Assembly: GCA_028700115.1 (NCBI GenBank)
Contig: JAQVTI010000001.1
Span: forward strand, 120,001-152,000
Reading direction: 5' to 3'
Source of the DNA: Candidatus Iainarchaeum sp.
GTDB lineage: Archaea; Iainarchaeota; Iainarchaeia; Iainarchaeales; CSSED10-239
DNA length: 32,000 nucleotides
Shown here: positions 3,546 through 32,000 of the stretch, piece by piece
How the letters are laid out: every line of letters starts with the position of its first letter
How positions within the stretch are numbered: position 1 is the stretch's first letter
Notes under the pieces: model-generated
What the model saw: only the letters and a program-made list of their open reading frames with translations
The model's database searches: none
What the model was told of the DNA's origin: nothing
Program-made: the position numbers and the translations under genes

Positions 3546-3887
3546 TTAAGAAATTAAAGACTTTAAAGTAAAAGATTGCTTTTCTATAAAAAGTAATCCT
3601 AAATCATTATTTATATAAAAAAGAGAACTTAAAAAATCATTTAAAAATAATTTATTAACTCTTATAATTATAATATTATTTTTAAAATCTAAAACAGAAA
3701 TATTTGCCGAAGAAGTTTTAAATAAACCATGTGTTTTTTGAAAATTTTTAATAAATATATATGCTAATTTTTTATTATCATAAGAAGATAAATCATTAAA
3801 ACAACTAATTTTTAAATATCTTTTTTTATGTCTTAAAGTAGGTCTAATAACATTAATTTTTTTAAATTTAATCATATTTTTCCACAA
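3546..3887 (-). CDS. rnp2: RNase P protein component Pop5/Rpp14-like
   Basis: RPTLRHKKRYLKI matches the conserved archaeal Pop5 N-terminal motif (PPTLRxKxRYI). Size about 110 aa. Lies between the Rpp30-like gene and psmA, as in the archaeal superoperon. Confidence 0.72.
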   Translation of the reverse strand: MWKNMIKFKKINVIRPTLRHKKRYLKISCFNDLSSYDNKKLAYIFIKNFQKTHGLFKTSSANISVLDFKNNIIIIRVNKLFLNDFLSSLFYINNDLGLLFIEKQSFTLKSLIS

Positions 3888-4488
3888 ATTTATTATAATC
3901 TAAAATATTATTTAAGATATCTTGGTCTAAATTAAATTCTTTTAAAAAATTAAAAAGAACTTGTTTTGAACAAAGAGAATTTAGATCTTTTGCAAAAGAA
4001 CAAAAATACATATTAATTAATTTTTGTTTAAGAAGTAATATAATAAATTGAGCTTGTTTTATATTTTTTTGAAAATTCTTAGATCTAAAAGAATTATAAT
4101 TAAAAACAACTTTAATATTATTTATTTTACACAAATTAGAACATTGCTCATCAAAAATTAGAGAATCAGATAAAGGATTATATAAATATTTAATATTTTT
4201 ATTAATTAAAAATTTTGTAAGTTTATTACTTTTAGAAAAATTTGGATTAAATAAAATTATTTTTTTATCTAAATCTTTTAAAATAGAAATATCCTCTATA
4301 AGATAAATATATTCTAAAGAAATTTTTTTAAAAGAAGAAAAATCAGGATTTAAAATAATATCTTTTTTTGAAACAATAGGAACTATTACAAAAATTTTAT
4401 TAAAACCTAATTTTAAAAATATATTTTCTAGTTCTTTTGGATTTGAAGAATCTATTAAATCTTTATAAACTATATCAAAAAATTTCAT
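3868..4488 (-). CDS. rnp3: Probable RNase P protein component Rpp30/Rnp3 (divergent)
   Basis: 206 aa and starts MKFFDI. Weak similarity to the Rpp30 pattern (..NIKVVFNYNSF.. and ..FCSFAKD...L.S.Q..FNFL). The call rests mainly on the conserved position immediately upstream of pop5-psmA. Confidence 0.55.
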   Translation of the reverse strand: MKFFDIVYKDLIDSSNPKELENIFLKLGFNKIFVIVPIVSKKDIILNPDFSSFKKISLEYIYLIEDISILKDLDKKIILFNPNFSKSNKLTKFLINKNIKYLYNPLSDSLIFDEQCSNLCKINNIKVVFNYNSFRSKNFQKNIKQAQFIILLLKQKLINMYFCSFAKDLNSLCSKQVLFNFLKEFNLDQDILNNILDYNKFVEKYD

Positions 4489-4602
4489 AAAAATACCTTT
4501 ATTTGAAATAAATTTTTATATTTTCTAAAAAAAATAAAAAATATAATAAATATATTTATTATAAAGAATTTATAAACATATACATTATTTAAAAATAAAA
4601 AA

Positions 4603-6309
4603 CTACATTTTAGAAGGGATATTTATACCTAAAAGATACAATGCATTTTCTAAAACAATATAAAATGCTTTTGTAAATAAAAGCCTATTTGTAGAAATTG
4701 ATTTATTATTACATAGAACATGACAAGAATTATAAAATTTATTAAAAATATGAGATAATTCAATTACATAATTTGCAATAATATTTGGTTTAAAGTCTTT
4801 AGATGCATATATAACTTTTTCTTTAAATTCATTTAATTTATTAATTAATAATAACTCTTCTTTTTCAAAATCATCTTTTAAAAATAAAAAATCAGTATTA
4901 AAATTATTAAAATTAGATTTATCTAAAATACTTTTAGCTCTCACACCACTATATTGAACATAAGCAGAAGAATCACCATTAAGATCTGTAGATTTATTTA
5001 TATCAAAAACAATTGTTTTAAAAATAGAATTTTTTAATAATTCAAATTTTATAGTCCCAAAAGAAATATCTTTTATTACTTGACTATCTTTATCTAAACC
5101 ATTTTGATCTAAAACAAAATTTACTTTTTCAAATAAAGCATCTCTAAAATCTTCATATAAAAATAAAGACCCACTTCTAGATTTCATTTTTCCTTCAGGA
5201 GTATTTACAAGACCATGAGATATATGTTTATTATCTAAATTAGGATAAATTATTTTAAATAATTTAAATAATTGCTCAAAATAAAATTCTTGTTCAGAAG
5301 CAACAATATACAAAAAATTATTACAATCTTTAAATTTCTCTTTTTTAAGATTAATTAAACCAATATCTTTAGCACCGTATAAAAGTGCATGATTACTTTT
5401 AATAATAATAAAATTACCAAGATGCTTGTCATTTAAATCTGCAACAATTGCACCTTGATCTTCTTTAAAAATATAGTTATATTTATTAAAAAGGCCTTCT
5501 TTAATTTCATTAAATTTTTTCTCAGATTGACTTTCAAAAAAGTTAAAACATAAATTAATATCTAATTCTTTTGCAACTTCCATATACCCATTAAAACTAG
5601 AATCTATGAAAAGCTTTAATCTATTTTGTAAATTAATATTTTTAATTAATTGAATTTGATAACTTTCAACTTGAGCTTTATATAAATCTTTATTTTCTAA
5701 AATTTTTTCACCAGCAAGAATGTATATATTACCAAACCATTTACTTTTATCTTTTTCAGGAATTAATTTTTTATTTTCAGCTAAAAAATTATCATAATAC
5801 CAAAGCCATTTTGCAATATGTGTCCCAACATCCCCCATATAAGAAACTGGTCTTGGATCAAAACCTGTAAATTTAAGTAATCTACAAATTGATTCTCCAA
5901 CAACTCCATTTCTAATGTGACCTATATGAAGCATCTTTAAAGGATTTGGTTGAAAAGTGTCAATTACAAAAGATTTATTTTTACCAAAATCAGATTTACC
6001 AAAATCTTTTTTTTTATTTAAAATCTCGGAAATTACATTTTTAACTAAAATTGAAGAATTAATAGTTGCATTTAAATAACCATTTAGTGATTTAAAACTA
6101 AAAATATCAGAAAAAATATTTTCAGATAAATTATTAGAAATTACTACTGGAGATTTTTTTAAAGATTTAGATAAAAAAAAACAAGGAAAAGAAAAATTTC
6201 CCAAATCTATTTTTGGAGGTATTTCTATAAGATCATATATTTCTTGAAAATTAAAATCAGAACCTAATTGTTCTAAAATAAGATCTGCAAAACACTTTTT
6301 ATAATCCAT
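4603..6309 (-). CDS. argS: Arginyl-tRNA synthetase
   Basis: Class I HIGH motif (NPLKMLHIGHIRNGVVGE) and an MKSRSG (KMSKS-type) loop. C-terminal DALR-like anticodon-binding region ending in the ArgRS-typical terminal Met. Confidence 0.93.
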   Translation of the reverse strand: MDYKKCFADLILEQLGSDFNFQEIYDLIEIPPKIDLGNFSFPCFFLSKSLKKSPVVISNNLSENIFSDIFSFKSLNGYLNATINSSILVKNVISEILNKKKDFGKSDFGKNKSFVIDTFQPNPLKMLHIGHIRNGVVGESICRLLKFTGFDPRPVSYMGDVGTHIAKWLWYYDNFLAENKKLIPEKDKSKWFGNIYILAGEKILENKDLYKAQVESYQIQLIKNINLQNRLKLFIDSSFNGYMEVAKELDINLCFNFFESQSEKKFNEIKEGLFNKYNYIFKEDQGAIVADLNDKHLGNFIIIKSNHALLYGAKDIGLINLKKEKFKDCNNFLYIVASEQEFYFEQLFKLFKIIYPNLDNKHISHGLVNTPEGKMKSRSGSLFLYEDFRDALFEKVNFVLDQNGLDKDSQVIKDISFGTIKFELLKNSIFKTIVFDINKSTDLNGDSSAYVQYSGVRAKSILDKSNFNNFNTDFLFLKDDFEKEELLLINKLNEFKEKVIYASKDFKPNIIANYVIELSHIFNKFYNSCHVLCNNKSISTNRLLFTKAFYIVLENALYLLGINIPSKM

Positions 6310-8053: not shown

Positions 8054-9070
8054 ATGTTTATAAACATACTTTATTTAATGTTTTCTTACAATATAAATAA
8101 TATGGATAAAGAAAAAATATTTAAAGACTTAAAAAAGAAACAATATGGTATTTTTGGAGATCATAGTGCGGTAGAAATTTGTGAATGGAATAAAAAAGCA
8201 TTAAGAGGAGAAGGAGTTTGCTATAAACAAAAATTTTATAATGCAGACTGTCACAGATGTGCACAAATTACCCCTGCTGTTATTTGGTGTCATCAAAATT
8301 GTATTTTTTGTTGGAGACCTGCAAATTATATGAAAGAACATATTCTTAAAGGAAAAATAAATGAACCAAAAGAAATAATAGATAATCTTTTTGAAGAAAG
8401 AAAAAAATTATTAAACGGATTTGGAGGAAATCCAAAAGTAGATAAAGAATTTTATAAAGAAGCATTAATACCATCTCATGTAGCAATATCTCTTGCAGGA
8501 GAACCAACTATATATCCTAAAATAGGAGAACTTATAAATGAACTTAAAAGCAGAGAAGAAATTAAAACAATTTTTTTAGTAACAAATGGATTAGAACCAA
8601 AAAGACTAAAAGAATTAAATGATAAAAATAATCTTCCAACACAATTATATTTATCTATAGAAGCATGTAATTATGATATGCATTTAAAAATAAACAGACC
8701 AAAAATAAAAGACTCTTGGCAAAGACTAAATGAAACAATAAAACTAATGCCAATTTTAAATTGTAGACGGGTAGTAAGATTTACTTTAATAAAAGGATTA
8801 AATGATTCTTTAGAATATATAGATGATTTTTTAAAAATGTTTGAAGAAACACAAACAGACTTTATAGAAATAAAATCATATATGTTTTTGGGGGAATCAA
8901 GAGAAAATTTAAAAAAAGAAAATATGCCAACACATACAGAAGTAGAAAACTATGCTAAAGAAATTGAAAAAAGATCTGAAAATTACTCTGTAATAGATAG
9001 ACAAGTTGCTTCCAGAATAGTACTTTTAAAAAATAAGAATAGCAAATATAGAAATTTCATAAAAGATTAA
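8054..9070 (+). CDS. taw1: tRNA 4-demethylwyosine synthase Taw1/TYW1 (radical SAM)
   Basis: Radical-SAM CxxxCxxC (CHQNCIFCWRP), preceded by the upstream Cys cluster typical of TYW1 (CYKQKFY..DCHRC). Also AISLAGEPTIYP and LVTNG. The likely start is the ATG at 8102 (MDKEKIF...). Confidence 0.85.
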   Translation: MFINILYLMFSYNINNMDKEKIFKDLKKKQYGIFGDHSAVEICEWNKKALRGEGVCYKQKFYNADCHRCAQITPAVIWCHQNCIFCWRPANYMKEHILKGKINEPKEIIDNLFEERKKLLNGFGGNPKVDKEFYKEALIPSHVAISLAGEPTIYPKIGELINELKSREEIKTIFLVTNGLEPKRLKELNDKNNLPTQLYLSIEACNYDMHLKINRPKIKDSWQRLNETIKLMPILNCRRVVRFTLIKGLNDSLEYIDDFLKMFEETQTDFIEIKSYMFLGESRENLKKENMPTHTEVENYAKEIEKRSENYSVIDRQVASRIVLLKNKNSKYRNFIKD

Positions 9071-9071
9071 T

Positions 9072-9935
9072 ATGGAAGAAAAATACAAACAAAAAATAAT
9101 AAAAGAAATAACAACAAATAAAACAATTTGTTTATTAGCACCTTCTTTTCCAGTAGATTTCAAATATCCAGATATAGTATATAAACTGAGACAAATTGGA
9201 TTTGATAAAATATTTGAATTAACATATGCGGCAAAAATAATTAACCAACATTATCATACAATAATAAAAAATGAAAACAAAAAACAATTTATAGCAGCAA
9301 ATTGCCCATGTACAATAACATATATAGAAAATCAATTTCCTGAATTTAAAAAAAACATAATAAACATTGCATCACCAATGGTAGTAATGGCAAGATTTTC
9401 AAAAAAAAAATATCCAAAAAAAAAATGTGTTTTTATAGGACCTTGCCTTGCTAAACAACAAGAAGCAAAAAAAAATAAAGAAGTAGATTTTGCAATAACA
9501 TTTAAAAACCTATATGAAATATTTAAATATTTTGAAAAAGAAAAAAAATTTAGAAAAATTAAAAAATCAAAAAAAAATTTGCAATTTGATTCATTATATA
9601 ATGATTATACAAAAATATATCCATTATCAGGAGCAGTTGCAAAAACAATGCATTATAAAAAAATACTTAAAAAAAATCAAATAATTGTTGCAGATGGGGT
9701 TATAAAAATTAAAGAAGCACTTGAAAAAATGAAAATTAATAAAAATATAAAATTCTTAGATGCACTTTTTTGTAAAGGAGGATGCATTGGAGGACCAGGA
9801 ATTATTTCTAAAAATAATTTAAATACAAAAATTAAAAAAATAAAAGAATATAGAAAAAATGCAAAAAAAGAAAAAATAGGAAAACATAAAGGATTATTTA
9901 AATATTCTAAAAATTTAAATGTAAAAAGAAAATAA
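9072..9935 (+). CDS. [FeFe]-hydrogenase H-domain-like protein (minimal, no accessory cluster domains)
   Basis: Three H-cluster signature blocks in canonical order: AANCPCT (Cys78/Cys80, nt 9303-9311), GPCLAKQQE (Cys125, Lys128, Glu131) and FCKGGCIGGPG (Cys234/Cys238). Also LLAPSFPV...LRQIGFDKIFELTYAA at the N-terminus. ATG is 1 nt after the taw1 stop. Confidence 0.7.
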   Translation: MEEKYKQKIIKEITTNKTICLLAPSFPVDFKYPDIVYKLRQIGFDKIFELTYAAKIINQHYHTIIKNENKKQFIAANCPCTITYIENQFPEFKKNIINIASPMVVMARFSKKKYPKKKCVFIGPCLAKQQEAKKNKEVDFAITFKNLYEIFKYFEKEKKFRKIKKSKKNLQFDSLYNDYTKIYPLSGAVAKTMHYKKILKKNQIIVADGVIKIKEALEKMKINKNIKFLDALFCKGGCIGGPGIISKNNLNTKIKKIKEYRKNAKKEKIGKHKGLFKYSKNLNVKRK

Positions 9936-17442: not shown

Positions 17443-18792
17443 TTAAATAAATTTTAAAATATCAGATAAATCTTTTGGATCTTTAAAACAAATAACATTA
17501 TTTTTTTCTAAAGTTTCTAAAAAAATATTTGTTTGAAAACCACCAATTGCTAAAACAAATATTGGTTTCTTACTTTTTTTTCTAATATTTATAATTTCAA
17601 TTAAAATATCTTGATTAATAGTAGATAATTGAAATAAAAATAATAAAATTAAACAAGAAATATTTTTATCATTTAAACAAATATTTATAGTTTTTATAAA
17701 TCTAAAATTATCACAATCTCCAGTAAGATCTAAAGGATTTTTAATAACAGCATAACTTGGAACAATTTTTTTAATTTTTTCAAAAGACTTTTTTGAAATT
17801 GAAGGTAAATTAAAACCATTAAAATCTAATTGATCAGAAGTTAAAACTCCAAACCCACCACCATTTGTAATTATTTGGATATTAGAAAGATCTAAATAAT
17901 CATAATTTGAAAAAACTTTTGCAAGAGAAAACATTTCTGAAATAGAATTAACTAGATATGCCCCAGATTGTTTACAAGCAGATTTAAAAACATCAAAAGA
18001 CCCAGCAATTGCAGCTGTATGTGACGTTGCTGCAACAATTCCTTTATTTGATATTCCTCCTTTTAAGATAATTATTTTTTTAGACTTTGATACTTTTTTT
18101 AAAGTTTTTAAAAAAAGATTACCATCTTTAATTCCTTCAATATAACATAAAATAATTTTAGTATTTTTCTCATTTTCTAAACTTAATAATAAATCAGATT
18201 CAGAAATATCTAAAGAATTACCATATGAAAAAAATTTACTAACACCTATATTTTCAAAATTAGCTCTATCTAAAAAAGATAAACCTAAAGCACCAGATTG
18301 AGATATCAAAGATACATTCCCTTTTTGTGGGAATTTAACTTCAGAAGAAATAAATGAAGCATTTAAATTATTATATAGATCTACATACCCAAGGCAATTT
18401 GGACCTAAAAGATTAATTTTATTTTTATCTAAGATATTTTTTAAATCTAAAGATAATTGTTTATTTCCAATTTCTAAAAAACCAGATGAAATTAAAATAA
18501 TATTTTTACAAGTTGTTTTAGATATATCTTTAATTACATCTAAAATAAGATTATGAGAAATGGCAATAATTACTATATCTATTTGTTTATTAATATCTAA
18601 AATTGACGAAAAAACTTTTTTATTAAAAATATATTTCCCAGAAAGTCTTGGATTTACATAAAAAACATCTTTTTTAAAAAAAGAAAGATTTTTAGAAATA
18701 GTATAACCTATACTATTTTCTTTATCAGAAGCACCTATTAAACAAATAGAAGACACATTATAAAAAGTATTTAAATTTTTCATATTTTTCAA
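17443..18792 (-). CDS. acdA: ADP-forming acetyl-CoA synthetase alpha-type subunit (CoA-binding + CoA-ligase domains)
   Basis: CoA-binding start ICLIGASDKENSIGY, then GPNCLGY, VSLISQSGALG, and the phospho-His loop ATSHTAAIAGS. Length of 449 aa fits the alpha subunit. No ATP-grasp beta subunit is adjacent. Confidence 0.8.
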   Translation of the reverse strand: MKNMKNLNTFYNVSSICLIGASDKENSIGYTISKNLSFFKKDVFYVNPRLSGKYIFNKKVFSSILDINKQIDIVIIAISHNLILDVIKDISKTTCKNIILISSGFLEIGNKQLSLDLKNILDKNKINLLGPNCLGYVDLYNNLNASFISSEVKFPQKGNVSLISQSGALGLSFLDRANFENIGVSKFFSYGNSLDISESDLLLSLENEKNTKIILCYIEGIKDGNLFLKTLKKVSKSKKIIILKGGISNKGIVAATSHTAAIAGSFDVFKSACKQSGAYLVNSISEMFSLAKVFSNYDYLDLSNIQIITNGGGFGVLTSDQLDFNGFNLPSISKKSFEKIKKIVPSYAVIKNPLDLTGDCDNFRFIKTINICLNDKNISCLILLFLFQLSTINQDILIEIINIRKKSKKPIFVLAIGGFQTNIFLETLEKNNVICFKDPKDLSDILKFI

Positions 18793-19853: not shown

Positions 19854-21014
19854 ATGAAAAATAAAAAAATGGCATTAACAGGTGGAGAAGCAATCTCATA
19901 TGCTTTAAAACAAATTAATCCAGATGTTGTGGCGATGTATCCAATAACTCCACAAACTCCTATTATTGAAAGATATTCAAAATATGTTGCAGATGGAGAA
20001 GTAGATACTGAACTAATTAGAGTTGAATCAGAACACTCTGCACTTTCAGCCACAATCGGAGCTGCTGCTTCAGGGTCTCGTGCAGTTACAGCAACAGCTT
20101 CTCAAGGTTTACTTTATATGTTTGAAGTTTTATCTGTTGCTTCAGGACTAAGACTTCCAATTGTTATGCCTGTTGTAAATAGAGCAATATCTTCTCCAAT
20201 AAACATACACTGCGATCATTCAGATTCAATGTCTGCAATTGATCAAGGTTGGATGCAAGTATATTGTCAAAATGCACAAGAAAGTTATGAAATGACTTTA
20301 TTTGCAACTAAGCTTGCAGAAAAAGTAAACTTACCTATTATGGTTTGTCAAGATGGATTTATAACTTCCCATAATCTAGAAAACATAGAAGTTTTTAATG
20401 ATAATAAAGTTAAAAAATTTATTGAGGACTACAAACCAGCATATAATTTATTAGATGTAGATAAACCTATATCAATTGGACCTTTAGCCTTAACAGATTA
20501 TTATTTTGAAATAAGAGCACAATTATTTGAAGCTTTTTCAAAAATTAAAAAAGAATTTAAAGAAATTTCAAATGAGTTTAAAGAAACTTTTGACATGAAA
20601 ATTAATTTTTTAGAAAAATATAAATCAAATGATGCAGAAATTATTTTTATATGCTTAAGCTCAACTGCTGAAAGTATAAAAGATGTAATTGATACTTATA
20701 GAGATAATGGTTATAAGGTAGGACTTGTAAGACCAGTTTTATTTAGACCATTTTTTTATGAAGAATATGCAAAAGAATTAGAAAATGCAAAAACAGTAGT
20801 TGTTTTAGATAGATCTGAAGGTCCAGGAAGCCATGCACCTTTGTTTAAAGACATAGTTATTTCTTTAACAAACATAGAAAAAAGACCAGAAGTTTTTTCT
20901 TTTGTTTATGGACTTGGTGGAAGAGAGATTTATCAAAAAGATATATGTAAATTATTAGATACTTTAATCTCTGGTAAGCTTCCAAAAAGTAAATATATTG
21001 GACTTAGAGAATAA
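19854..21014 (+). CDS. porA: Pyruvate:ferredoxin oxidoreductase alpha subunit
   Basis: ALTGGEAISYALKQINPDVVAMYPITPQTPIIE, ESEHSALSATIGAAASGSRAVTATASQGLLYM and GLGGREI are typical PorA/2-oxoacid:Fd oxidoreductase alpha sequences. Confidence 0.92.
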   Translation: MKNKKMALTGGEAISYALKQINPDVVAMYPITPQTPIIERYSKYVADGEVDTELIRVESEHSALSATIGAAASGSRAVTATASQGLLYMFEVLSVASGLRLPIVMPVVNRAISSPINIHCDHSDSMSAIDQGWMQVYCQNAQESYEMTLFATKLAEKVNLPIMVCQDGFITSHNLENIEVFNDNKVKKFIEDYKPAYNLLDVDKPISIGPLALTDYYFEIRAQLFEAFSKIKKEFKEISNEFKETFDMKINFLEKYKSNDAEIIFICLSSTAESIKDVIDTYRDNGYKVGLVRPVLFRPFFYEEYAKELENAKTVVVLDRSEGPGSHAPLFKDIVISLTNIEKRPEVFSFVYGLGGREIYQKDICKLLDTLISGKLPKSKYIGLRE

Positions 21015-23469
21015 TTTTAAATTTGTGAAAAATATGAATAATTCAGAACTTGCAATAAAGATTAATGAAAATAAAAAATTAGTTCCAGGACATAGAACAT
21101 GTGCAGGATGCCCTATTGCTGTGATATTAAGAACAGCACTTGCTTCAACTGATAAAAAAATAGTTGTAGCTTCAGCTACTTCTTGTGCAGAAGTAACTAC
21201 TACAATATATCCTTATACATCTTGGAATGTTCCTTGGATGCATTCTGTTTTTGCAAATGCAGCTGCAACTATTTCAGGAATTGAAAGTTCTTATAAAGCT
21301 TTAAAGAAAAAAGGCAAAATAAAAAAAGATATTAGATTTTTAGCTTTTGGTGGAGATGGTGGATGTTACATTCCAAAAACAAAAATATTAACTACAGAAG
21401 GTTTTAAAAATGTAGAAAAAATAACTACAAAAGATTTAATTTGGTCAATAAATCCAAAAAATAAAACTTTAGAAAAATCAAAAATAAAAAAAATGCATAA
21501 ATATAATTATAATGAAAAAATAATTTCTGTAAATCACAATTTTGTACATTTTGATGTATCTTTACAACACAACATTCCAATTTATAATAAATTAAATAAC
21601 AAAATAGAAGCTATTAAAGCACATGAATTATTAAATTATGGTAGAAGTGATAAAATAAATATAATAACAGGTGATTTAAACTGGAAAGGTAAAAATAAAA
21701 AATATTTTGAATTACCAAAAATTAAATACAACAAAAATTCAAATAATAAAAAGGACATACCTAAAATAAATATGAAAATTTGGTTAGAATTTTTTGGATA
21801 TTGGATATCTGAAGGACACCTTTCAAAACATAATAGTAAAAGAAATATATACAACACTTTTATATCTCAAACAAAAAAAGCAACTATTAAAAAAATAGAT
21901 AAATGCTTAAAACAAACTAAAATAAATTATTGGTATAATAAAGATAGATTTTGTATAAGTAATCAAAAATTATGGGTATATTTAGAACAATTTGGAAAAG
22001 CAAAAGACAAATATATTCCTCAAGAATTTAAAGAATTATCAAAAGACTATTTACAAATATTATTAAATTCATTAATGGAAGGAGACGGCACAATAATTAA
22101 AAGACTTAAAAGCACAGCTTATTCTTATAGTACAATTTCAAAAAAATTAAAAGACGATGTAATTGAAATTGCACTTAAATTAGGATATAGAGTGCATTTA
22201 GATGAAAGAACTAGAAAAAACAGAAAAGAATACAGTATATCTTTTTCAAATTACAAACCAACAAGATTAGCAAACCTAAGAAAAAAACACATCACAAATT
22301 ATAATTATAAAGGAAAAATATATTGTCCAGAATTAGAAAAAAACCACATCATGGTTATTGAAAAAGATGGGCGAATAAGTTTAAATATGAATAGTTTCGA
22401 CATTGGACTTCAAAGTCTATCAGGAGCATTAGAAAGAGGACATGATTTTACATATATATGTTATACAAACGAAGGATATATGAATTGTTTATCTACAGAT
22501 TCACTAATTATGACTGAATCAGGATTAAAACAAATTACAGAAATTAAAAAAGGAGAAAAAGTTTGGGCTTTTGATCAAAAAACATATCAACCTGTTTTAA
22601 AAAAATGCACAGGTGTATTTGATAATGGTAGAAAAAAAGTATATGAAATTGAAACTATACATCAAAATATAAAAGCAACATCTAATCATCCGTTCTTAGT
22701 ATTAAAAAGAAATAAAAATAAAGAAAATGAATTTGTTTGGAAAACAGTTACAGAACTTAAAAAAGATGACGAAATTGTAACTCTTAAAAAGAAATTTTAT
22801 AAAAACTTAGATATAAATAAAAATCTAAAAAATGATTATAAAATACAAAATAATCATTATTTTATAATAAGAAAAATAAAAAATATAATTCCTAGAAAAA
22901 TAGAACAAACATTAGATTTAAGAGTTGAAGGAGAACACAATTTTATTGCAAATGGAATTGTTGTTCATAACACAGGAAATCAGAGATCTTCAGCAACACC
23001 TTATGGAGCATCAACAACTACAACTCCTTCTGGAAAAGTTTCTTTTGGTAAAGAAAAATTCCAAAAAGATCTTGCACAAATTATAATTGCACACAACATA
23101 CCTTATGTGGCAACTGCAAATCCAGAATTCCAAATTGATATGTATGAAAAAATGAAAAAAGCTTTTGAAACAAAAGGACCTTCATTTATTTTAATTTTTG
23201 CAGCATGCCCTACAAACATGAAAGCAGATCCATCAGAGACATTTACAATTAGTAAAATGGCTACTGAGACAAATTACTTCCCACTTTATGAATATGAGAA
23301 TAGAAAATATAAAATTAATTATAAACCTTTTAAAAAAGTTCCAATTGAAGAATTTTTAAAACTACAAACAAAATTTAGAGAAGTTTTAAAAGATAAAAAA
23401 GAAATTAAAATCATACAAGAACACGTAGATGAAAAATGGAATAGTATTCTAAAAAAGGAAGAAAAATAA
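20998..23469 (+). CDS. porB: Pyruvate:ferredoxin oxidoreductase beta subunit (ThDP-binding) precursor carrying two inteins
   Basis: Exteins read [13 protein letters not shown]...LAFGGDGG | [31 protein letters not shown] | [19 protein letters not shown].... This is a normal PorB of about 306 aa counted from the ATG at 21034. The ORF is 823 aa because of two in-frame insertions with intein hallmarks. Confidence 0.92.
   Translation: [823 protein letters not shown]
21020..21033 (+). promoter_or_regulatory. Conserved translation-initiation region AATTTGTGAAAAAT upstream of porB
   Basis: 14/14 identical to 19839-19852 and immediately precedes the ATG at 21034. Supports 21034 as the real porB start rather than the TTG at 20998. 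Confidence 0.4.
21364..22392 (+). mobile_element. Intein 1 in PorB (343 aa, with LAGLIDADG homing-endonuclease domain)
   Basis: Begins with Cys ([14 protein letters not shown], block A) directly after GGDGG. Block B-like [10 protein letters not shown]. Two LAGLIDADG motifs ([10 protein letters not shown] and [11 protein letters not shown]). Block F-like [19 protein letters not shown]. Ends ...ISLNMN with a terminal Asn followed by a +1 Ser (22393). The penultimate residue is Met rather than the usual His. Confidence 0.85.
22486..22971 (+). mobile_element. Intein 2 in PorB (162-aa mini-intein, no endonuclease domain)
   Basis: Starts [13 protein letters not shown] (block A). TSNHPFLV matches the block B TxxH motif. 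[20 protein letters not shown] is a canonical block F/G ending in HN, followed by a +1 Thr (22972). Removing it restores YMN-TGNQRS. Confidence 0.9.
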
Positions 23470-23483
23470 AAAAGGTTTTAATT

Positions 23484-24191
23484 GTGCCAAACATCTCAAC
23501 ACATGCAAAAATAATTAAAGAAGTTTATTCTAAAAATAAAAAATTTAATTTAGATTATTTAGTATCTGGAAGTATATTTCCAGATTATTACTATTTTTTA
23601 AAATATCAAAAATATAATGACCCCACTAATTTACTACATTCTAAACTTGCAAAAAGATACTCAGAAAAACTAATTAAATCTGCAAAAAACAAAAAAGAAC
23701 TTTCTTTTGCAATAGGTGTTTATTCACACATTATAGTTGACCAAAAAGTTCATGCATATTTAAGAAAAAACAAACTTGAAAAAAACATAAATCACCTAGT
23801 AATTGAACATTTTTTAGAGATAAAACAACATACACCTGTTAACAAAATATTAATTTGTAAAAATTTAATTAAAAGAACTATTCCTAAAAAATATTATATA
23901 CATTTAAAAAAAATAAATTTATTTAATTCAATTAAATTTATTTTATTTAATAAAACTATATTTTTTTTAATAAAACAAAAATACATAAATAAAAAAAGAT
24001 CTAAGAAAAAAAGTATATGGAATTTAATTTTAAGAATAGGTTATAAAAGACCACTTAAAAGAGTAGAGTTTACAGATATAGAAAAAATAGTAAATCCTAA
24101 TTTTAAATTAAAAAAACATATAAAAAATATAGAAAAAGAAATAAATTTATCTAAAAAAGAAATAATTAAAAAAATCAAAGAATTAATTTAA
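23484..24191 (+). CDS. Hypothetical protein, possibly a zinc-dependent phospholipase C-like (His/Asp-rich) fold
   Basis: GTG start 14 nt after porB. N-terminal half has spaced His/Asp residues (MPNISTHAKII, FPDYYY, LLHS, YSHIIVDQKVHAYL, NHLVIEHF) reminiscent of the Zn_dep_PLPC family. C-terminal half is Lys-rich and hydrophobic. The assignment is weak. Confidence 0.4.
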   Translation: MPNISTHAKIIKEVYSKNKKFNLDYLVSGSIFPDYYYFLKYQKYNDPTNLLHSKLAKRYSEKLIKSAKNKKELSFAIGVYSHIIVDQKVHAYLRKNKLEKNINHLVIEHFLEIKQHTPVNKILICKNLIKRTIPKKYYIHLKKINLFNSIKFILFNKTIFFLIKQKYINKKRSKKKSIWNLILRIGYKRPLKRVEFTDIEKIVNPNFKLKKHIKNIEKEINLSKKEIIKKIKELI

Positions 24192-25370
24192 TAATTCTTT
24201 AACATCTCTAATCATTTGTAATTCTTCATTTGTTGGAATAACTAAAACTTTAATTAAACTATCTTCTGATGAAATTATTAATTCATTTGAATTATTTTTA
24301 CTTTCATCTAACTTAAGTCCTAAAAAACTAAAATGATCTAAAACAAGTTTTCTTAAAAAAGGAGAATGCTCTCCAACTCCTCCTGTAAAAACAATTACAT
24401 TTATTCCTTTCATCTCAGAAATGTATGCACCAATTATTTTAATTATTCTATTTACTAAAATATCATTTGCAAGAGTACAATCTTTACAACCTTTAATTGC
24501 ATTTTCTTCAATATACCTATGATCACTTGATTGCTTAGATATTCCTAAAAGCCCAGATTGTTTATTTATTAATTTTTTAATATCTTCTTTAGAATAACCA
24601 TTTTCTAATAAAAATAAAATTATTTCAGGATCAAAACTTCCAGATCTAGTTCCCATTGGAAGACCATCTAAAGGAGTAAAACCCATAGAAGTATCAAAAC
24701 TTTTACCATTTTTAATAGCACATATACTTTGACCATTCCCTAAATGACATGTAATTATATTTATTGAATCATAATCTTTTTCTAAAATCTCACATGCTTT
24801 TCTTGAAACAAACTTATGAGAGGATCCATGAAAACCATAACTTCTAATTTTAAATTTTTCATAAAGCTCTATTGGAAGAGCATATAAATAATTTTCTAAA
24901 GGTATAGTTGAATGGAATGCTGTATCAAAAACCCCAAAATGCTTTGTAGATTCTGGCAAATGACCTTTTAAAATTTCAACACATTTTAAATTTACAGGAT
25001 TATGAAGCGGTGCTAAAAAATTATATTTTTTTAAATCTTCTAAAACCTCAGAAGTAAGCTCTGTTGTTTTATTATATTTTTCAGCTCCATGAACAATTCT
25101 ATGAACAACATAATTAATTTCAAAAAAAGAAGTAATAATATTATTTTCTATTAAAAAATCTAAAAGATTAGAAACAGCTAAATCATGTTCTAAAATATCA
25201 AACTCATCTTTTAATTTTTTATCATTAAATTTAATTTTTCTAAGACAAGTTCTACCAGAAACTCCAATTCCATCAAATTGTCCAACAATTAATGTTTTTT
25301 CATTTTCAAAATCGGCTAATTCAAATTTTAAAGAACTACTACCTGCATTAATTACTAAAATATTACTCAT
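24183..25370 (-). CDS. ackA: Acetate kinase
   Basis: ILVINAGSSSLKFEL N-terminus, VHRIVHGAE, APLHNP, FDTAFH, YGFHGSSH, ITCHLGNGQS, MGTRSG.DP and FTGGVGEHS make up the complete acetate/propionate kinase motif set. Confidence 0.93.
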   Translation of the reverse strand: MSNILVINAGSSSLKFELADFENEKTLIVGQFDGIGVSGRTCLRKIKFNDKKLKDEFDILEHDLAVSNLLDFLIENNIITSFFEINYVVHRIVHGAEKYNKTTELTSEVLEDLKKYNFLAPLHNPVNLKCVEILKGHLPESTKHFGVFDTAFHSTIPLENYLYALPIELYEKFKIRSYGFHGSSHKFVSRKACEILEKDYDSINIITCHLGNGQSICAIKNGKSFDTSMGFTPLDGLPMGTRSGSFDPEIILFLLENGYSKEDIKKLINKQSGLLGISKQSSDHRYIEENAIKGCKDCTLANDILVNRIIKIIGAYISEMKGINVIVFTGGVGEHSPFLRKLVLDHFSFLGLKLDESKNNSNELIISSEDSLIKVLVIPTNEELQMIRDVKELLN

Positions 25371-28379: not shown

Positions 28380-28390
28380 CTACAATCACA

Positions 28391-28440
28391 TTTATTTTAA
28401 TTTAGGTTAATTTATTTTAATTTATTTTAATTTAGTTTAA
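28391..28440. repeat. Tandem 10-bp repeat, 5 copies (TTTATTTTAA / TTTAGGTTAA / TTTAGTTTAA)
   Basis: Read directly: tttattttaa tttaggttaa tttattttaa tttattttaa tttagtttaa. It starts 12 nt upstream of the top6B ATG, in the core-promoter zone of top6B. Confidence 0.95.
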
Positions 28441-28452
28441 AAATATAATTTA

Positions 28453-28562
28453 ATTATTATAAAATTATTATAAAATTATTATAAAATTATTATAAAATTA
28501 TTATAAAATTATTATAAAATTATTATAAAATTATTATAAAATTATTATAAAATTATTATAAA
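28453..28562. repeat. Tandem 11-bp repeat ATTATTATAAA, 10 perfect copies
   Basis: Read directly: units start at 28453, 28464, 28475 and so on to 28552, with no mismatches. A degenerate tail follows (tattacaaattataaatatta). Each unit contains a TATA-box-like TTATAAA. Confidence 0.95.
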
Positions 28563-28696
28563 TATTACAAATTATAAATATTATATATATAATATATTAA
28601 AATATATTTATAAATATATTTATGATAAAGAAAGTAAAATAAATATAATAAAGATAAAACAAATAATTTAAATATATATTGTAAAATAAGATATTT

Positions 28697-30841
28697 ATGT
28701 GTTCGATTGCAGGTAGCTTTAATTTAACTCAAAGCATCAAAAATTGTTATGAAATGAATGTTTTAATGCAAAAAAGAGGTCCTAACCACACATCTTTTGC
28801 ACACATCAAAGATAATAAAGTATATATTTATGAATATACAGATAGATTTGAACAAAACAATACAATAAGCCATAATTTACTTGCAATTGTAGGAAACATA
28901 TCTCAACCTATAAAATATAAAAACACATTAATTACATCTAATTGTGAGATATATAATTGGAAAGAAATTTGTAAAAAAGAAAAAATAAATGCAAGAAATG
29001 ACTCAGAGATGTTAATTAAACTTTTTGAGAAAGAAAAAGTAAATAAGAAAACTTTAGAAAAACTAGATGGAGCATATGCATTTTGTTTCTGGAAAGAAAA
29101 CAAAATTTATCTTGCAAGAGATATTTTAGGAGTAAAACCTTTATGGTTTTCATATGAGAACAAAAGTTTTTGTTTTGCATCAGAAAAAAAAGCCTTAGAA
29201 AAAATTGGACGAGAAAAAATAGAATTTTTAGATCCAAGAAAGATTTTAATTTATGATATTAATAAAAATCTAATTAACTATAAAAAAAGAGAATTTATAA
29301 AAATTAAAGAAAATAAAAATGGTTTAGAAAAAAATAAAAAAATAATTCAAGAAAAATTAGAACAAGCAATTATTAAAAGAATTCCAGAAAAAAAACTAGC
29401 ACTTCTTTTTAGTGGAGGAATAGATTCTACAATAATTGCAATGATTCTTAAAAAACACAAAATAGATTTTACAGCATACTTTGCACATCTTAAAGGATAT
29501 AATGAAAATAAAGATTTAGAATATGTTAGAGAGATTGCAAAAAAATATAAAATTAAATTAAAAATTAAAAGTTTAGATTATAAAGACTTAGAAAAAAATA
29601 TTAAACAAGTTGTAAAAACTATTGAATCAACTAACCCTATTAAAATAGGAGTTGGCTTACCTATTTATCTTGCAAGTAAACTTGCTTCAAAAGATAAAAA
29701 TAAAGTTATTTTTTCAGGACTTGGTTCTGATGAGATTTTTGCAGGATATAATAGATTTAAAGAATCTAAACATATTCAAAAAGACACACTTAATCTACTT
29801 TATCAAATACATGAAAATGATTTAAATAGAGACGACTCTCTTACAATGGAAAACAGTATTGAGTTAAGACTTCCTTTTTTAGATTTACCTTTAATTAAAG
29901 AAGTAATTGGAATTGAAGATAAACAAAAAATTAACTCTGAAGAAAATAAAATTATCTTAAGAGAGATTTCAAAAGAATATAGTCTAGATGAAAAATATTT
30001 TAAAAGAAAAAAAGTTGCTGCACAATATGGTTCTGGGTTTGATAAAGGAATAATTAAACTTTCAAAAGAAAATAAATTTAAATCAAAATCAGAATATCTA
30101 AAAACTTTTTTAGAAAAGCAGAATCTTAATTTAGGATGTTTATATTCTTCTGGAAAAGACTCTAATCTTTCTTTAAATATTCTAAAAAAACAAAATTATA
30201 AAATAAAATGTTTAATTTCTATTATTCCAGAAAACAAAGACTCATACATGTATCAAACTCCTGATTTAAAAATTTTAAAAGCACAATCAGAATGTATAGA
30301 AATACCTTTAGTTTTAGGAAAAACAAAAGGTGAAAAAGAAAAAGAATTAATTGATCTTAAAAAAGTAATTAAAAAAGCAAAAGATAAATACAATCTGCAA
30401 GGAATTGTCTCAGGTGCATTATTTAGTAACTACCAAAGAGAAAGAATTCAAAACATATGTAATGATTTAGGTTTAAGATTGTTTTCACCTCTATGGAATA
30501 TAAACCAAGAAAAAGAAGTTTTGAAATTAATAAAAGAAAAATTTGATTTTAGAATTGTTAAAATTGCTGGATATGGACTAAATAAAGATTGGTTTTTAAG
30601 AAAAATAGATTTAAAAGCTTTAGAAGAACTTAAAAAACTAAATAAGAAATATGGTTTCAATGTAGCAGGAGAAGGTGGAGAATTTGAAACTATTGTTTTA
30701 GACTCACCTGATTTTAAAAAAAAAATAAAAGTTATAGACTACAAGATAAATTTAGAAAATGAATTTACTGGTGAAATTGAAATTAAAAAAATAAAAATAG
30801 AAGAAAAAAGAAAAACTAATTCTAACAAGTACAACCAATAG
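28697..30841 (+). CDS. Fusion protein: glutamine-dependent asparagine synthetase-like enzyme (GATase II + PP-loop synthetase) + diphthine-ammonia ligase-like (Dph6/MJ0570-type PP-loop) domain
   Basis: N-terminus MCSIAG (Cys2 nucleophile, 28700-28702), NCEIYN, NDSE, LDGAYAF, LARDILGVKPLW, FASEKKAL. First PP-loop SGGIDS (29411-29428), GLGSDEIFAGY, RLPFLD. From about 30125 a second module: LYSSGKDS (30149-30163), SYMYQTP, GIVSGALFSNYQRERI, SPLW and AGEGGEFETIVLDSP (30671-30691), typical of Dph6/ATP_bind_4. One uninterrupted frame. Confidence 0.85.
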   Translation: MCSIAGSFNLTQSIKNCYEMNVLMQKRGPNHTSFAHIKDNKVYIYEYTDRFEQNNTISHNLLAIVGNISQPIKYKNTLITSNCEIYNWKEICKKEKINARNDSEMLIKLFEKEKVNKKTLEKLDGAYAFCFWKENKIYLARDILGVKPLWFSYENKSFCFASEKKALEKIGREKIEFLDPRKILIYDINKNLINYKKREFIKIKENKNGLEKNKKIIQEKLEQAIIKRIPEKKLALLFSGGIDSTIIAMILKKHKIDFTAYFAHLKGYNENKDLEYVREIAKKYKIKLKIKSLDYKDLEKNIKQVVKTIESTNPIKIGVGLPIYLASKLASKDKNKVIFSGLGSDEIFAGYNRFKESKHIQKDTLNLLYQIHENDLNRDDSLTMENSIELRLPFLDLPLIKEVIGIEDKQKINSEENKIILREISKEYSLDEKYFKRKKVAAQYGSGFDKGIIKLSKENKFKSKSEYLKTFLEKQNLNLGCLYSSGKDSNLSLNILKKQNYKIKCLISIIPENKDSYMYQTPDLKILKAQSECIEIPLVLGKTKGEKEKELIDLKKVIKKAKDKYNLQGIVSGALFSNYQRERIQNICNDLGLRLFSPLWNINQEKEVLKLIKEKFDFRIVKIAGYGLNKDWFLRKIDLKALEELKKLNKKYGFNVAGEGGEFETIVLDSPDFKKKIKVIDYKINLENEFTGEIEIKKIKIEEKRKTNSNKYNQ

Positions 30842-32000
30842 CTGCACAACTTTTACCCCAAGCAGTTGCCATTGCTTGACAAAGTGCGACATTACCGTCT
30901 GTAGATGACCTATAAAACATATCACTTGTATCAGTTGTAATCGAAACATTCCATGAAGATAAATTTCTATTCATTTTAGTTCTACCAAACATATAATACA
31001 TAGTAGATACATTTGAAACATCCCAATTAGATAAATCTTGGTTAAAATTACTTGCATATGCGAACATATTACGCATATTATTAATATTTGAAACATCCCA
31101 ATTATTCATATTAGAAACATAAGATACATTTGAACAATTTCTAAAAAAACCTTCTAAACTAGTAACCCCATTTAAATCTAAAATATCAGTTGCAGTTATA
31201 CTAGTTAAATTACTACAACCATAAAATGCATTTGTACTAAATTTTGGGTTAAACCCCCCCCAATGAGATATATTTGTAATTTTAGGATAATCTCCAGAAG
31301 CATTAAAAGACCAACCTTGAATAGTTCCAAACATATTTACATCATAAATTCCTGATGAAGAATAAGTATGTAATTTATCAGAATCATCATAAGAAGTTAT
31401 TTCTGAAGTAGTCCCATCTCCCCAATCTACTGTAAAATCATAATTACCTTCAGAAACTAAAGGTAAAGATATTTGATTAGCTTCACTAGATCCAGTAGAA
31501 GTTTTTGTAGTATCCCAAGTTGAAGAAAAATAAGGAATTATACAATCTTGACCACATGAAGAAATTGTTTCATCTCCATTACAAGTTCCATCTCCACAAT
31601 AAGGTGCATTATCACATGAAACAAGACTTGCTCCTAAATAACTTACAGGAATAGAAATATATTTACCATCATTAGTTTTTAATTCTAAAATAAATTCTTT
31701 TGAAGGAATACATATTATATCTAATTGATTACTTCTATTTGGATTAATAACTAAAGGAGTTTCTAAAGTATATTCTGTGTTTATAAAATTTGTATTTTCT
31801 GCGGTTGTAGAAATTAATTTATATGCAACAACATTTAAATCTTTATTAAAATTGTTATTTTCTAAAACAACTTTAGAATAATCCCCAGACATACTTTCAT
31901 AAACAGATCTGTATTTTATAAACCCATCTAAATCTGATTTATCATAAGTAACTACAGAAGATTCATCTAGATTAGATGTAGTAAAATCTTTTGAAAAAGA
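30822..32000 (-). CDS. Secreted/surface protein with BspA/DUF285-type repeats and Cys-rich modules; 5' end lies beyond the window edge
   Basis: By my own translation the frame stays open upstream of the ORF-track Met to position 32000 (...SFSKDFTTSNLDESSVVTYDKSDLDGFIKYRSVYESMSGDY...). Contains CGDGTCNGDETISSCGQDC, the DWGDGT..YSSSG.Y motif, and repeated FxxCSNL.../WDVSN(I/V)xxMxxMF...FNQDLSxWDVSNV units typical of DUF285/BspA-like leucine-rich surface proteins. Cys-rich C-terminus CQAMATAWGKSCAAIGCTC. Confidence 0.7.
   Translation of the reverse strand, partial: SFSKDFTTSNLDESSVVTYDKSDLDGFIKYRSVYESMSGDYSKVVLENNNFNKDLNVVAYKLISTTAENTNFINTEYTLETPLVINPNRSNQLDIICIPSKEFILELKTNDGKYISIPVSYLGASLVSCDNAPYCGDGTCNGDETISSCGQDCIIPYFSSTWDTTKTSTGSSEANQISLPLVSEGNYDFTVDWGDGTTSEITSYDDSDKLHTYSSSGIYDVNMFGTIQGWSFNASGDYPKITNISHWGGFNPKFSTNAFYGCSNLTSITATDILDLNGVTSLEGFFRNCSNVSYVSNMNNWDVSNINNMRNMFAYASNFNQDLSNWDVSNVSTMYYMFGRTKMNRNLSSWNVSITTDTSDMFYRSSTDGNVALCQAMATAWGKSCAAIGCTC

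Follow-up and report, generated by a model that had tools for sequence, protein, structure and literature searches.

A conserved archaeal fusion of an AsnB-type amidotransferase module with the diphthamide synthetase Dph6

In this work we analyzed a stretch of DNA of 32,000 nucleotides from Candidatus Iainarchaeum sp. (contig JAQVTI010000001.1, positions 120,001 to 152,000; hereafter, the window), in which a single open reading frame (ORF) encodes an AsnB-like glutamine amidotransferase (GATase) module followed by a diphthine-ammonia ligase, Dph6. Dph6 is an ATP-dependent enzyme that adenylates the diphthine carboxylate on archaeal elongation factor 2 (EF-2), after which ammonia replaces AMP. 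We propose that the gene encodes the diphthamide synthetase of the organism, joined through a rigid conserved junction to a module from a distinct clade of the AsnB family. The N-terminal nucleophile (Ntn) glutaminase would hydrolyze an amide donor, probably glutamine, and the NH3 set free would travel by way of the AsnB-type PP-loop domain and be used for amidation in the same polypeptide, so that diphthamide formation would become independent of free ammonium. The probability of this coupled model as a whole is, in our estimate, about 0.5. The analysis establishes the identities of the domains and the conservation of the catalytic motifs in all three of them, and shows that the fusion is genuine, widely distributed and rigid; the role of glutamine as donor, the arrival of NH3 at the Dph6 site and the substrate that the middle PP-loop domain would adenylate are inferred.

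Domain organization of the fused gene

The ORF starts with ATG and comprises 714 codons without internal stops. Its translation is identical to a protein (P0001) already present in NCBI as "MAG: diphthine--ammonia ligase [Candidatus ainarchaeum sp.]". The following features were delineated, with amino acid (aa) positions given for the domains:

28697..30841, + strand: whole gene of the three-domain protein (class-II GATase, AsnB-type PP-loop, Dph6); ATG start, 714 aa, stop codon included
28697..29296, + strand: class-II (Ntn) glutamine amidotransferase domain, aa 1-200 (Pfam GATase_7/GATase_6, residue table, 1ct9 alignment)
29309..30106, + strand: AsnB-type PP-loop (synthetase-like) domain, aa 205-470 (Pfam Asn_synthase, TIGR01536, residue table, Foldseek match to 1ct9)
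30032..30142, + strand: junction segment, aa 446-482 (alignment of 120 orthologues)
30128..30805, + strand: Dph6 (diphthine-ammonia ligase, DUF71/Diphthami_syn_2) domain, aa 478-703 (Pfam, NCBIfam, structure matches, signature residues)

In Pfam searches the N-terminus matched GATase_7 at aa 69-168 (E=7e-21; aa 53-168 for GATase_7 and GATase_6 together), the middle part matched Asn_synthase in two stretches, the best one at aa 218-359 (E=4e-40), and the C-terminus matched Diphthami_syn_2 at aa 481-700 (E=5e-61), covering profile positions 5-218 of 219. Among the NCBIfam models, TIGR03679 (Dph6_archaeal) scored 246.7 bits on the C-terminal 239 aa against an equivalog cutoff of 197.3. The N-terminal 475 aa passed the asparagine synthase equivalog TIGR01536 (asn_synth_AEB) only marginally, with 274.3 bits against a cutoff of 267.1, and the N-terminal half failed the AsnB-specific model NF006949 (222 versus 499 bits). 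The Pfam and NCBIfam scores exceed chance by a wide margin. The two-domain AsnB fold was recovered with Foldseek (1ct9, E=6.5e-29, TM 0.78-0.79), and the match to human asparagine synthetase (ASNS, 6gq3) was alike. Thus, the domain call of the initial annotation, an AsnB-like amidotransferase with its PP-loop followed by a PP-loop of the Dph6 type, was correct, and all 11 motifs quoted in its support were located in the translation:

Glutaminase (aa): MCSIAG 1-6, NCEIYN 82-87, LARDILGVKPLW 139-150, FASEKKAL 160-167
Middle domain (aa): SGGIDS 239-244, GSDEIFAGY 343-351, RLPFLD 391-396
Dph6 domain (aa): SSGKDS 484-489, SGALFSNYQRERI 572-584, SPLW 597-600, EGGEFET 659-665

Conservation of the fusion and of its junction

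The 120 best homologues from a collection of 5.8 billion proteins, which belong to a family of at least 120 orthologues, share 44-62% identity with this protein, are 671-735 aa long and come from many independent assemblies; in all of them both halves are present in a single polypeptide. Their named sources include Woesearchaeota, Nanoarchaeota, Diapherotrites/Iainarchaeota and metagenome-assembled genomes (MAGs) labelled "archaeon". About 30 more AsnB-Dph6 fusions were found among the GTDB species representatives.

The junction segment is nearly gap-free across the 120 orthologues and has a fixed length without a variable linker. Four of its positions are conserved in most sequences (K464 in 106, L468 in 116, N476 in 119 and L479 in 110 of 120), and S465, Y467 and F471 are conserved as well. 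The junction motif (E/D)Y(L/I)xxF is also the exact end point of stand-alone homologues and of the split AsnB-like genes of Methanococcoides. To judge from the alignment, the segment differs from a flexible linker. When the whole 714-aa chain was modelled with AlphaFold2 from a 50-sequence alignment, the mean predicted local distance difference test score (pLDDT) was 91.7 and the predicted TM-score (pTM) 0.86. Such a pTM would be hard to attain without a defined mutual arrangement of the three domains, and the model thus lends indirect support to a fixed arrangement. No solved chain spanning all three domains was found with Foldseek; each of its matches is limited to the AsnB portion or to the Dph6 portion.

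It should be noted that the initial annotation, while describing a single-ORF fusion, had allowed for an assembly error or a frameshift joining two separate genes. No evidence for such an artefact was found beyond this caveat. Against it stand the continuous ORF in at least 120 full-length orthologues whose assemblies and sources are independent of one another, the additional fusions in GTDB, the conserved junction and the confident whole-chain model. We therefore reject this explanation, whose probability is practically negligible, and regard it as nearly certain that the fusion is genuine.

The Dph6 domain

The C-terminal domain matches the archaeal Dph6 proteins PH1257 (2d13, E=3e-58) and PF0828 (3rjz, E=4e-52) in sequence, and PF0828 (3rk1) and PH1257 (2d13) in fold, with TM values of 0.95-0.97 in Foldseek. 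Its PP-loop is SSGKDS at aa 484-489 (S-x-G-K-D-S). All nine Dph6-signature residues are kept in the 3rjz alignment (S516, Y517, E550, Y579, Q580, A624, E659, E662 and E664, corresponding to S44, Y45, E78, Y103, Q104, A149, E183, E186 and E188 of PF0828), the last three forming the EGGEFE segment (E659-G-G-E662-F-E664). Apart from Y517, which the conservation listing for 50 orthologues does not include, they are invariant or nearly so in these orthologues. The signature residues of PF0828 were singled out previously as Dph6-specific and facing EF-2 (PMC3541065). Taken together, the passed TIGR03679 cutoff, the PH1257 and PF0828 matches, the fold similarity and the complete signature leave little doubt that the domain is a functional Dph6; the proposed second PP-loop is that of a bona fide archaeal enzyme. 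A single DUF71 homologue is listed for each of M. mahii, M. zhilinae and M. burtonii (Table S1 of PMC3541065), which makes the fused copy the sole Dph6 of M. mahii and M. zhilinae.

The glutaminase and the middle PP-loop domain

Catalytic residues were checked in the 120 orthologues and in E. coli AsnB taken from NC_000913, and AsnB positions are numbered from Cys1. In the glutaminase of the studied protein the nucleophile Cys2 as well as R27, N82, E84 and D102 are conserved, N82, E84 and D102 being the ligands of the oxyanion and of the amino group. The equivalent AsnB residues are kept almost throughout the orthologues (Cys1 in 118, R30 in 119, N74 in 120, E76 in 119 and D98 in 120 of 120), and the position of AsnB Gly75 is occupied by Cys in 115 of 120. 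The glutaminase of this protein thus looks active by its sequence, and hydrolysis of an amide donor appears its most likely reaction because Cys2, N82, E84 and D102 are kept.

The middle domain retains SGGIDS (239-244), SGLGSDE (340-346), E346, Y351, D375, R378, RLPFLD (391-396) and K439. L232, S346/G347, E352, Y357, D384, R387 and K449 (AsnB numbering) are conserved in the orthologues, and SGGxDS is invariant there except for G235 (114/120). Compared with E. coli AsnB, the domain is cut short by about 80 residues at its C-terminal side. Reportedly, Glu348 is required in the E. coli enzyme for beta-aspartyl-AMP to be formed, and the T-T-I-R segment is said to be implicated in formation of the intermediate, with roles ascribed to Thr322 and Arg325 (older numbering with Met=1; 322 and 324 in Cys1 numbering). 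While the PP-loop and K449 of the synthetase site are kept, Glu348 is replaced by Leu in 118/120 orthologues (Leu342 here), and T-T-I-R (321-324) reads V-K-V-G in the orthologue alignment (T322K, R324G). In human ASNS, Glu348 corresponds to Glu-364, which is conserved and lines the tunnel beside the synthetase site, and the tunnel in AsnB runs to its own synthetase site (PMC11615228).

By these departures the AsnB-like half stands apart as a clade of its own within the AsnB family, marked by the signature L49, C75, K322 and L348. Since Glu348 is Leu, the middle domain is probably not a canonical asparagine synthetase. Aspartate could nevertheless be its substrate, since E352, Y357, D384 and R387 are kept. 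One may also speculate that a hydrophobic Leu at the tunnel exit is compatible with the onward passage of NH3.

Distribution of the fusion and of its reduced forms

An exhaustive HMMER search with aa 1-470 over 1.84 billion representatives gave 559 matches at E<=1e-30. Among the best 150 of these 559 representatives, 51 contained a Dph6 domain and the others did not; the signature residues were common to Dph6-fused and unfused AsnB-like proteins. A scan of the GTDB species representatives yielded 80 loci (L), which were classified by six-frame ORFs and phmmer and hidden Markov model searches, with a subset checked in Pfam. The loci and the search representatives (P) fall into the following classes, where Syn stands for the AsnB-type PP-loop domain:

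Class i, full three-domain fusion: Iainarchaeota, Woesearchaeota, Nanoarchaeota, Altiarchaeota (L016, L033), Ca. Nanosalina J07AB43 (L025), Methanolobus (L012) and several Methanosarcinales MAGs
Class ii, Asn_synthase + Diphthami_syn_2, with GATase absent from the protein and within 4 kb, 482-523 aa: L026 (another Ca. ainarchaeum; 3707-5473), L030 (3866-5434), L031 (3980-5425), L032 (3914-5413); representatives P0224 and P0237
Class iii, full-length with glutaminase catalytic residues lost: Methanococcoides L035/L060, L027, L039, Methanohalophilus sp. RSK L028
Class iv, gene fission in two Methanococcoides species: L035 3794-6207, L060 3518-5783
Class v, Syn-only proteins of about 300 aa: including L054, located downstream of a stand-alone dph6 at a distance of about 0.8 kb

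Thus, the fusion architecture recurs in Iainarchaeota, Woesearchaeota, Nanoarchaeota, Altiarchaeota, Nanohaloarchaeota and Methanosarcinales. In the split Methanococcoides loci the AsnB-like gene ends with ...EYINSF and a stop codon at the junction motif, and the Dph6 gene starts with GTG 10-20 nt past this stop, preceded by GGAG, so that the halves remain adjacent. The L054 locus (134-2635, Nanoarchaeota MAG) contains, on the same strand, a stand-alone dph6 gene (134-835), a radical-SAM/SPASM gene (886-1833) and a Syn-only AsnB-like PP-loop gene (1655-2635). The motifs of the middle PP-loop are intact in all of these forms, bar occasional single substitutions. Across the compared sequences, what stays with Dph6 throughout is the AsnB-type PP-loop domain rather than the glutaminase, and this comparative point is new. 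That the fusion is functional rather than accidental is likely in view of its rigid and conserved junction, its repeated occurrence in different phyla, the neighbouring position of the halves after fission and its persistence through domain loss.

Three further points concern individual homologues. The closest one, P0002, starts with MGRIICSIN and was not counted as a case of a dead glutaminase, since a different start codon or the removal of a propeptide may expose its Cys. The stand-alone homologues were considered as possible truncations at contig ends; this was true for P0122 and was ruled out for P0194, P0152 and P0137, which are complete internal genes. In P0155 (1005 aa) the AsnB-like/Dph6 unit begins at about residue 370 and is preceded by an extra N-terminal region.

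Earlier proposals and evaluation of the ammonia-supply model

In 2012, de Crécy-Lagard et al. (Biol Direct 7:32, PMC3541065) reported the fusion of GAT-II (the class-II GATase domain), Asn_Synthase_B_C and DUF71 for Methanohalophilus mahii, Methanosalsum zhilinae and Ca. Nanosalinarum J07AB56. The authors proposed that one or both PP-loop domains receive NH3 from GAT-II, and a reviewer of that paper raised the question of which PP-loop uses it. Consequently, the initial annotation erred in treating the architecture as not known, and both its glutamine-to-NH3 hypothesis and the alternative, that the AsnB-like half serves a substrate of its own, had been anticipated. A search of the accessible literature found no later paper testing glutamine-dependent Dph6. 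Since the architecture and the hypothesis have been known since 2012 and the protein was already annotated in NCBI, the gene is not a discovery in itself.

In favor of coupling between the two halves we count the conserved junction, the confidence of the AlphaFold2 model, the recurrence across phyla and the adjacency after fission, together with the earlier independent proposal (PMC3541065). Several observations weigh against the coupled model, and they concern the donor, the middle domain and the relatives of the protein. The glutamine site of AsnB reportedly consists of the nucleophile Cys1, Arg49, Asn74, Glu76 and Asp98, with Arg49 as the ligand of the glutamine alpha-carboxylate in AsnB and in the other Ntn amidotransferases. 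This site is incomplete here: Arg49 is replaced by Leu in 120/120 orthologues and by Leu61 in the studied protein, within SHNLLAIVG (aa 58-66, nt 28868-28894, + strand; 1ct9 alignment and residue table). The adjoining residue is His in 110/120 orthologues but Leu here. Glutamine as the donor is therefore doubtful. The statement that the N-terminal half has every hallmark of AsnB stands for the quoted motifs, the Cys nucleophile and N74/E76/D98 and fails at Arg49 and Glu348, which are Leu clade-wide. The invariance of the PP-loop and K449 everywhere suggests that the middle domain very probably has ATP-dependent chemistry of its own and is not a passive conduit.

The relatives point the same way. 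Syn-Dph6 proteins devoid of GATase occur in at least 2-3 independent sublineages (L026/P0224, L030, L031, L032), and the Pfam matches of L030-L032 are confined to Asn_synthase and Diphthami_syn_2. Their closest relatives are three-domain fusions that differ from one of these proteins to another, with 50-56% identity, which indicates, by nearest-neighbour BLAST, at least 2-3 independent losses of the glutaminase with Syn-Dph6 retained. Elsewhere the glutaminase is present and degenerate. In Methanococcoides (L035/L060) the N-terminus reads MGRIAG (Cys1 to Gly), NCE is changed to DTD and D98 to N; L027 has MTRILG, DAE and S at these sites; the catalytic residues are also lost in L039; and in Methanohalophilus sp. 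RSK (L028) the N-terminal half of the domain is unrecognisable (GATase_7 at 22.5 bits versus a cutoff of 25). The stand-alone AsnB-like P0194, P0152 and P0137 are complete genes of 467-502 aa inside Woesearchaeota/DPANN contigs, with dph6 not nearby, so that the AsnB-like half is not obligatorily fused. The genes dph2 and dph5 and that for EF-2 were not found within the 32-kb window; in favor of the model, dph1/2 have been reported in DPANN archaea, at times as two genes (PMC6143161). Relatives that dispense with the glutaminase show that the Syn-Dph6 pair is able to function in its absence, presumably using free NH3, and this weakens the glutamine-to-NH3 idea as the sole rationale of the fusion.

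Much of this evidence would be accommodated if the middle PP-loop were the true partner of Dph6, performing or assisting an ATP-dependent step tied to diphthamide formation or EF-2 handling, with the glutaminase as an optional accessory (present in this protein and, as its sequence suggests, probably active). Such a partner might, for example, have a second adenylation or amidation substrate, form an activating or scaffolding pair with the paralogous PP-loop, or gate the ammonia path. The persistence of Syn-Dph6 with the GATase independently deleted or catalytically dead, the near invariance of SGGxDS, SGxGxE and K449 in all forms, the adjacency of the AsnB-like (dead glutaminase) and Dph6 genes after fission in Methanococcoides, and the departures from canonical AsnB (E348L, T322K, R324G) agree with it. 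However, Thermococci, Archaeoglobales, Thermoplasmatota and many Woesearchaeota have Dph6 as a separate protein and lack an AsnB-like gene within 4 kb of it, yeast Dph6 reportedly works in vitro on ammonium alone, diphthine offers a single carboxylate for amidation, and stand-alone AsnB-like genes are unlinked to dph genes. We consider this explanation possible but rather doubtful.

Alternatively, two independent enzymes, a genuine glutamine-dependent asparagine synthetase and Dph6, might have been fused for co-expression or by neutral accident, with ammonia unshared. The score of the N-terminal half above the TIGR01536 cutoff (274 vs 267 bits), the preserved putative aspartate pocket (E352, Y357, D384, R387) with K449, the stand-alone versions annotated as asparagine synthetase B and the AsnB tunnel leading to its own synthetase site (PMC11615228) speak for it. 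Yet the cutoff is cleared only marginally, and the entire clade has Leu in place of both Arg49 and Glu348, two residues that E. coli AsnB and human ASNS have in common. Were the fusion neutral, one would expect neither a conserved junction of fixed length nor adjacency after fission, nor that it outlasts the loss of the glutaminase in several lineages. In addition, DPANN archaea are otherwise generally poor in amino-acid biosynthesis. We consider this explanation, like the preceding one, possible but rather doubtful.

A broader idea goes beyond the coupled model. The short archaeal AsnB-like module (L49/C75/L348) might be a dedicated, unrecognised component of diphthamide synthesis rather than an asparagine synthetase. 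It would act with Dph6 in cis when fused, as the product of a neighbouring gene, or in trans in the case of the stand-alone homologues of 300-500 aa, either by relaying or gating ammonia into the Dph6 site or by a second ATP-dependent step on EF-2, with the glutaminase optional and repeatedly lost. We put this forward as a conjecture that is more probably wrong than right by a considerable degree.

Of the natural hints that, in some archaea, an attached amidotransferase serves the last step of diphthamide synthesis, the fusion is the best one. The protein described here would be well suited to a first biochemical test of this, with its three sets of catalytic motifs intact and a confident predicted structure. 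At the same time, the repeated loss of the glutaminase with retention of the PP-loop shifts the question from the source of ammonia to the role of the second PP-loop domain. The residual interest of the gene thus lies in the old question from 2012 and in the comparative point on the constant PP-loop partner of Dph6.

Genomic neighbourhood

The neighbours of the gene in the window are archaeal housekeeping genes, encoding the exosome subunits Rrp41 and Rrp4, SBDS, proteasome alpha, Pop5, arginyl-tRNA synthetase (ArgRS), a Tyw1-like radical-SAM enzyme and RadA, as well as IscS/IscU, pyruvate:ferredoxin oxidoreductase (PFOR) and topoisomerase VI A/B. Together with a G+C content of about 23%, they fit a DPANN-type archaeon. 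Genes for asparaginyl-tRNA synthetase and GatCAB were not found within the 32-kb window.

Upstream of the AsnB-Dph6 gene lies the following region:

28380..28696, no strand assigned: very A+T-rich intergenic region of 317 bp between the divergent top6B and AsnB-Dph6 genes (ORF map)

This is presumably the promoter region of the two genes. It contains an 11-bp tandem repeat, AATTATTATAA, at 28452-28614 (about 15 copies, 85% matches) and a shorter ATTTAGTTTA array at 28390-28440. On the other side, a convergent gene (30822-31892, - strand) encodes a 356-aa Cys-rich protein with DUF285 ('Mycoplasma') repeats, and runs at its 3' end into the final 20 nt of the AsnB-Dph6 gene.

Other observations concern more distant parts of the window. 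An ORF of 823 aa (20998-23469, + strand) that follows the genes for PFOR gamma, delta and alpha is an intein-containing PFOR beta subunit, in which TPP_enzyme_C is split by an intein (Intein_splicing/Hint and a LAGLIDADG homing endonuclease). A full-length acetate kinase, an enzyme uncommon in archaea, is encoded at 24183-25370 (- strand; Pfam E=2e-130) and an ADP-forming acetyl-CoA synthetase-like protein (Succ_CoA_lig/CoA_binding) at 17443-18792 (- strand); no phosphotransacetylase was seen in the window. The gene at 9072-9935 (+ strand) is located directly downstream of that for the Tyw1-like radical-SAM enzyme (8054-9070). Finally, the G+C content falls to 15.5% over 1 kb at 4001-5000, around an unannotated ORF of 206 aa without a Pfam match (3868-4488) and the 3' end of the ArgRS gene.

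Comparison with known systems

The closest known counterparts are the AsnB-DUF71 fusions described in 2012 (PMC3541065), which have the same three domains (GAT-II, the Asn_synthase PP-loop and DUF71) in the same order and the same proposed role, with GAT-II supplying NH3. The relatives found here include members from Methanosarcinales and nanohaloarchaea with 33-43% best-segment identity. Unlike them, the present copy comes from an A+T-rich (about 23% G+C) DPANN-type archaeon with the NCBI label Ca. ainarchaeum, and the catalytic residues of its glutaminase are intact, whereas those of the examined Methanohalophilus sp. RSK and Methanococcoides relatives are degenerate.

With the stand-alone archaeal Dph6 proteins (PH1257, 2d13; PF0828, 3rjz/3rk0/3rk1) and yeast Dph6 the C-terminal domain has in common SxGKDS, EGGExE, the EF-2 interface and the signature residues. 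PH1257 and PF0828, however, are single-domain enzymes of about 220 aa, in contrast to this 714-aa fusion, and eukaryotic Dph6 carries RidA/YjgF domains at its C-terminus, whereas here an AsnB module is attached at the N-terminus.

E. coli AsnB (1ct9) and human ASNS (6gq3) share the fold of an Ntn glutaminase and a PP-loop domain with this protein (TM 0.79), although the identity is only 23%. Cys1, R30, N74, E76, D98, SGGxDS, S346/G347, E352, Y357, D384, R387 and K449 are kept, while R49L, G75C, E348L, T322K and R324G are changed, and Dph6 is attached where the AsnB-like part ends some 80 residues early. The same fold, with 13-16% identity, is found in AsnB-family enzymes with a silent glutaminase, namely beta-lactam synthetase (1jgt), carbapenam synthetase (1q15) and the lasso-peptide cyclases. 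The analysis gave no sign of cyclisation chemistry in the studied protein, which, unlike these enzymes, keeps Cys1. In them the AsnB PP-loop works on other carboxylates without glutamine, similar to the relatives of the present fusion in which the glutaminase is dead or missing.

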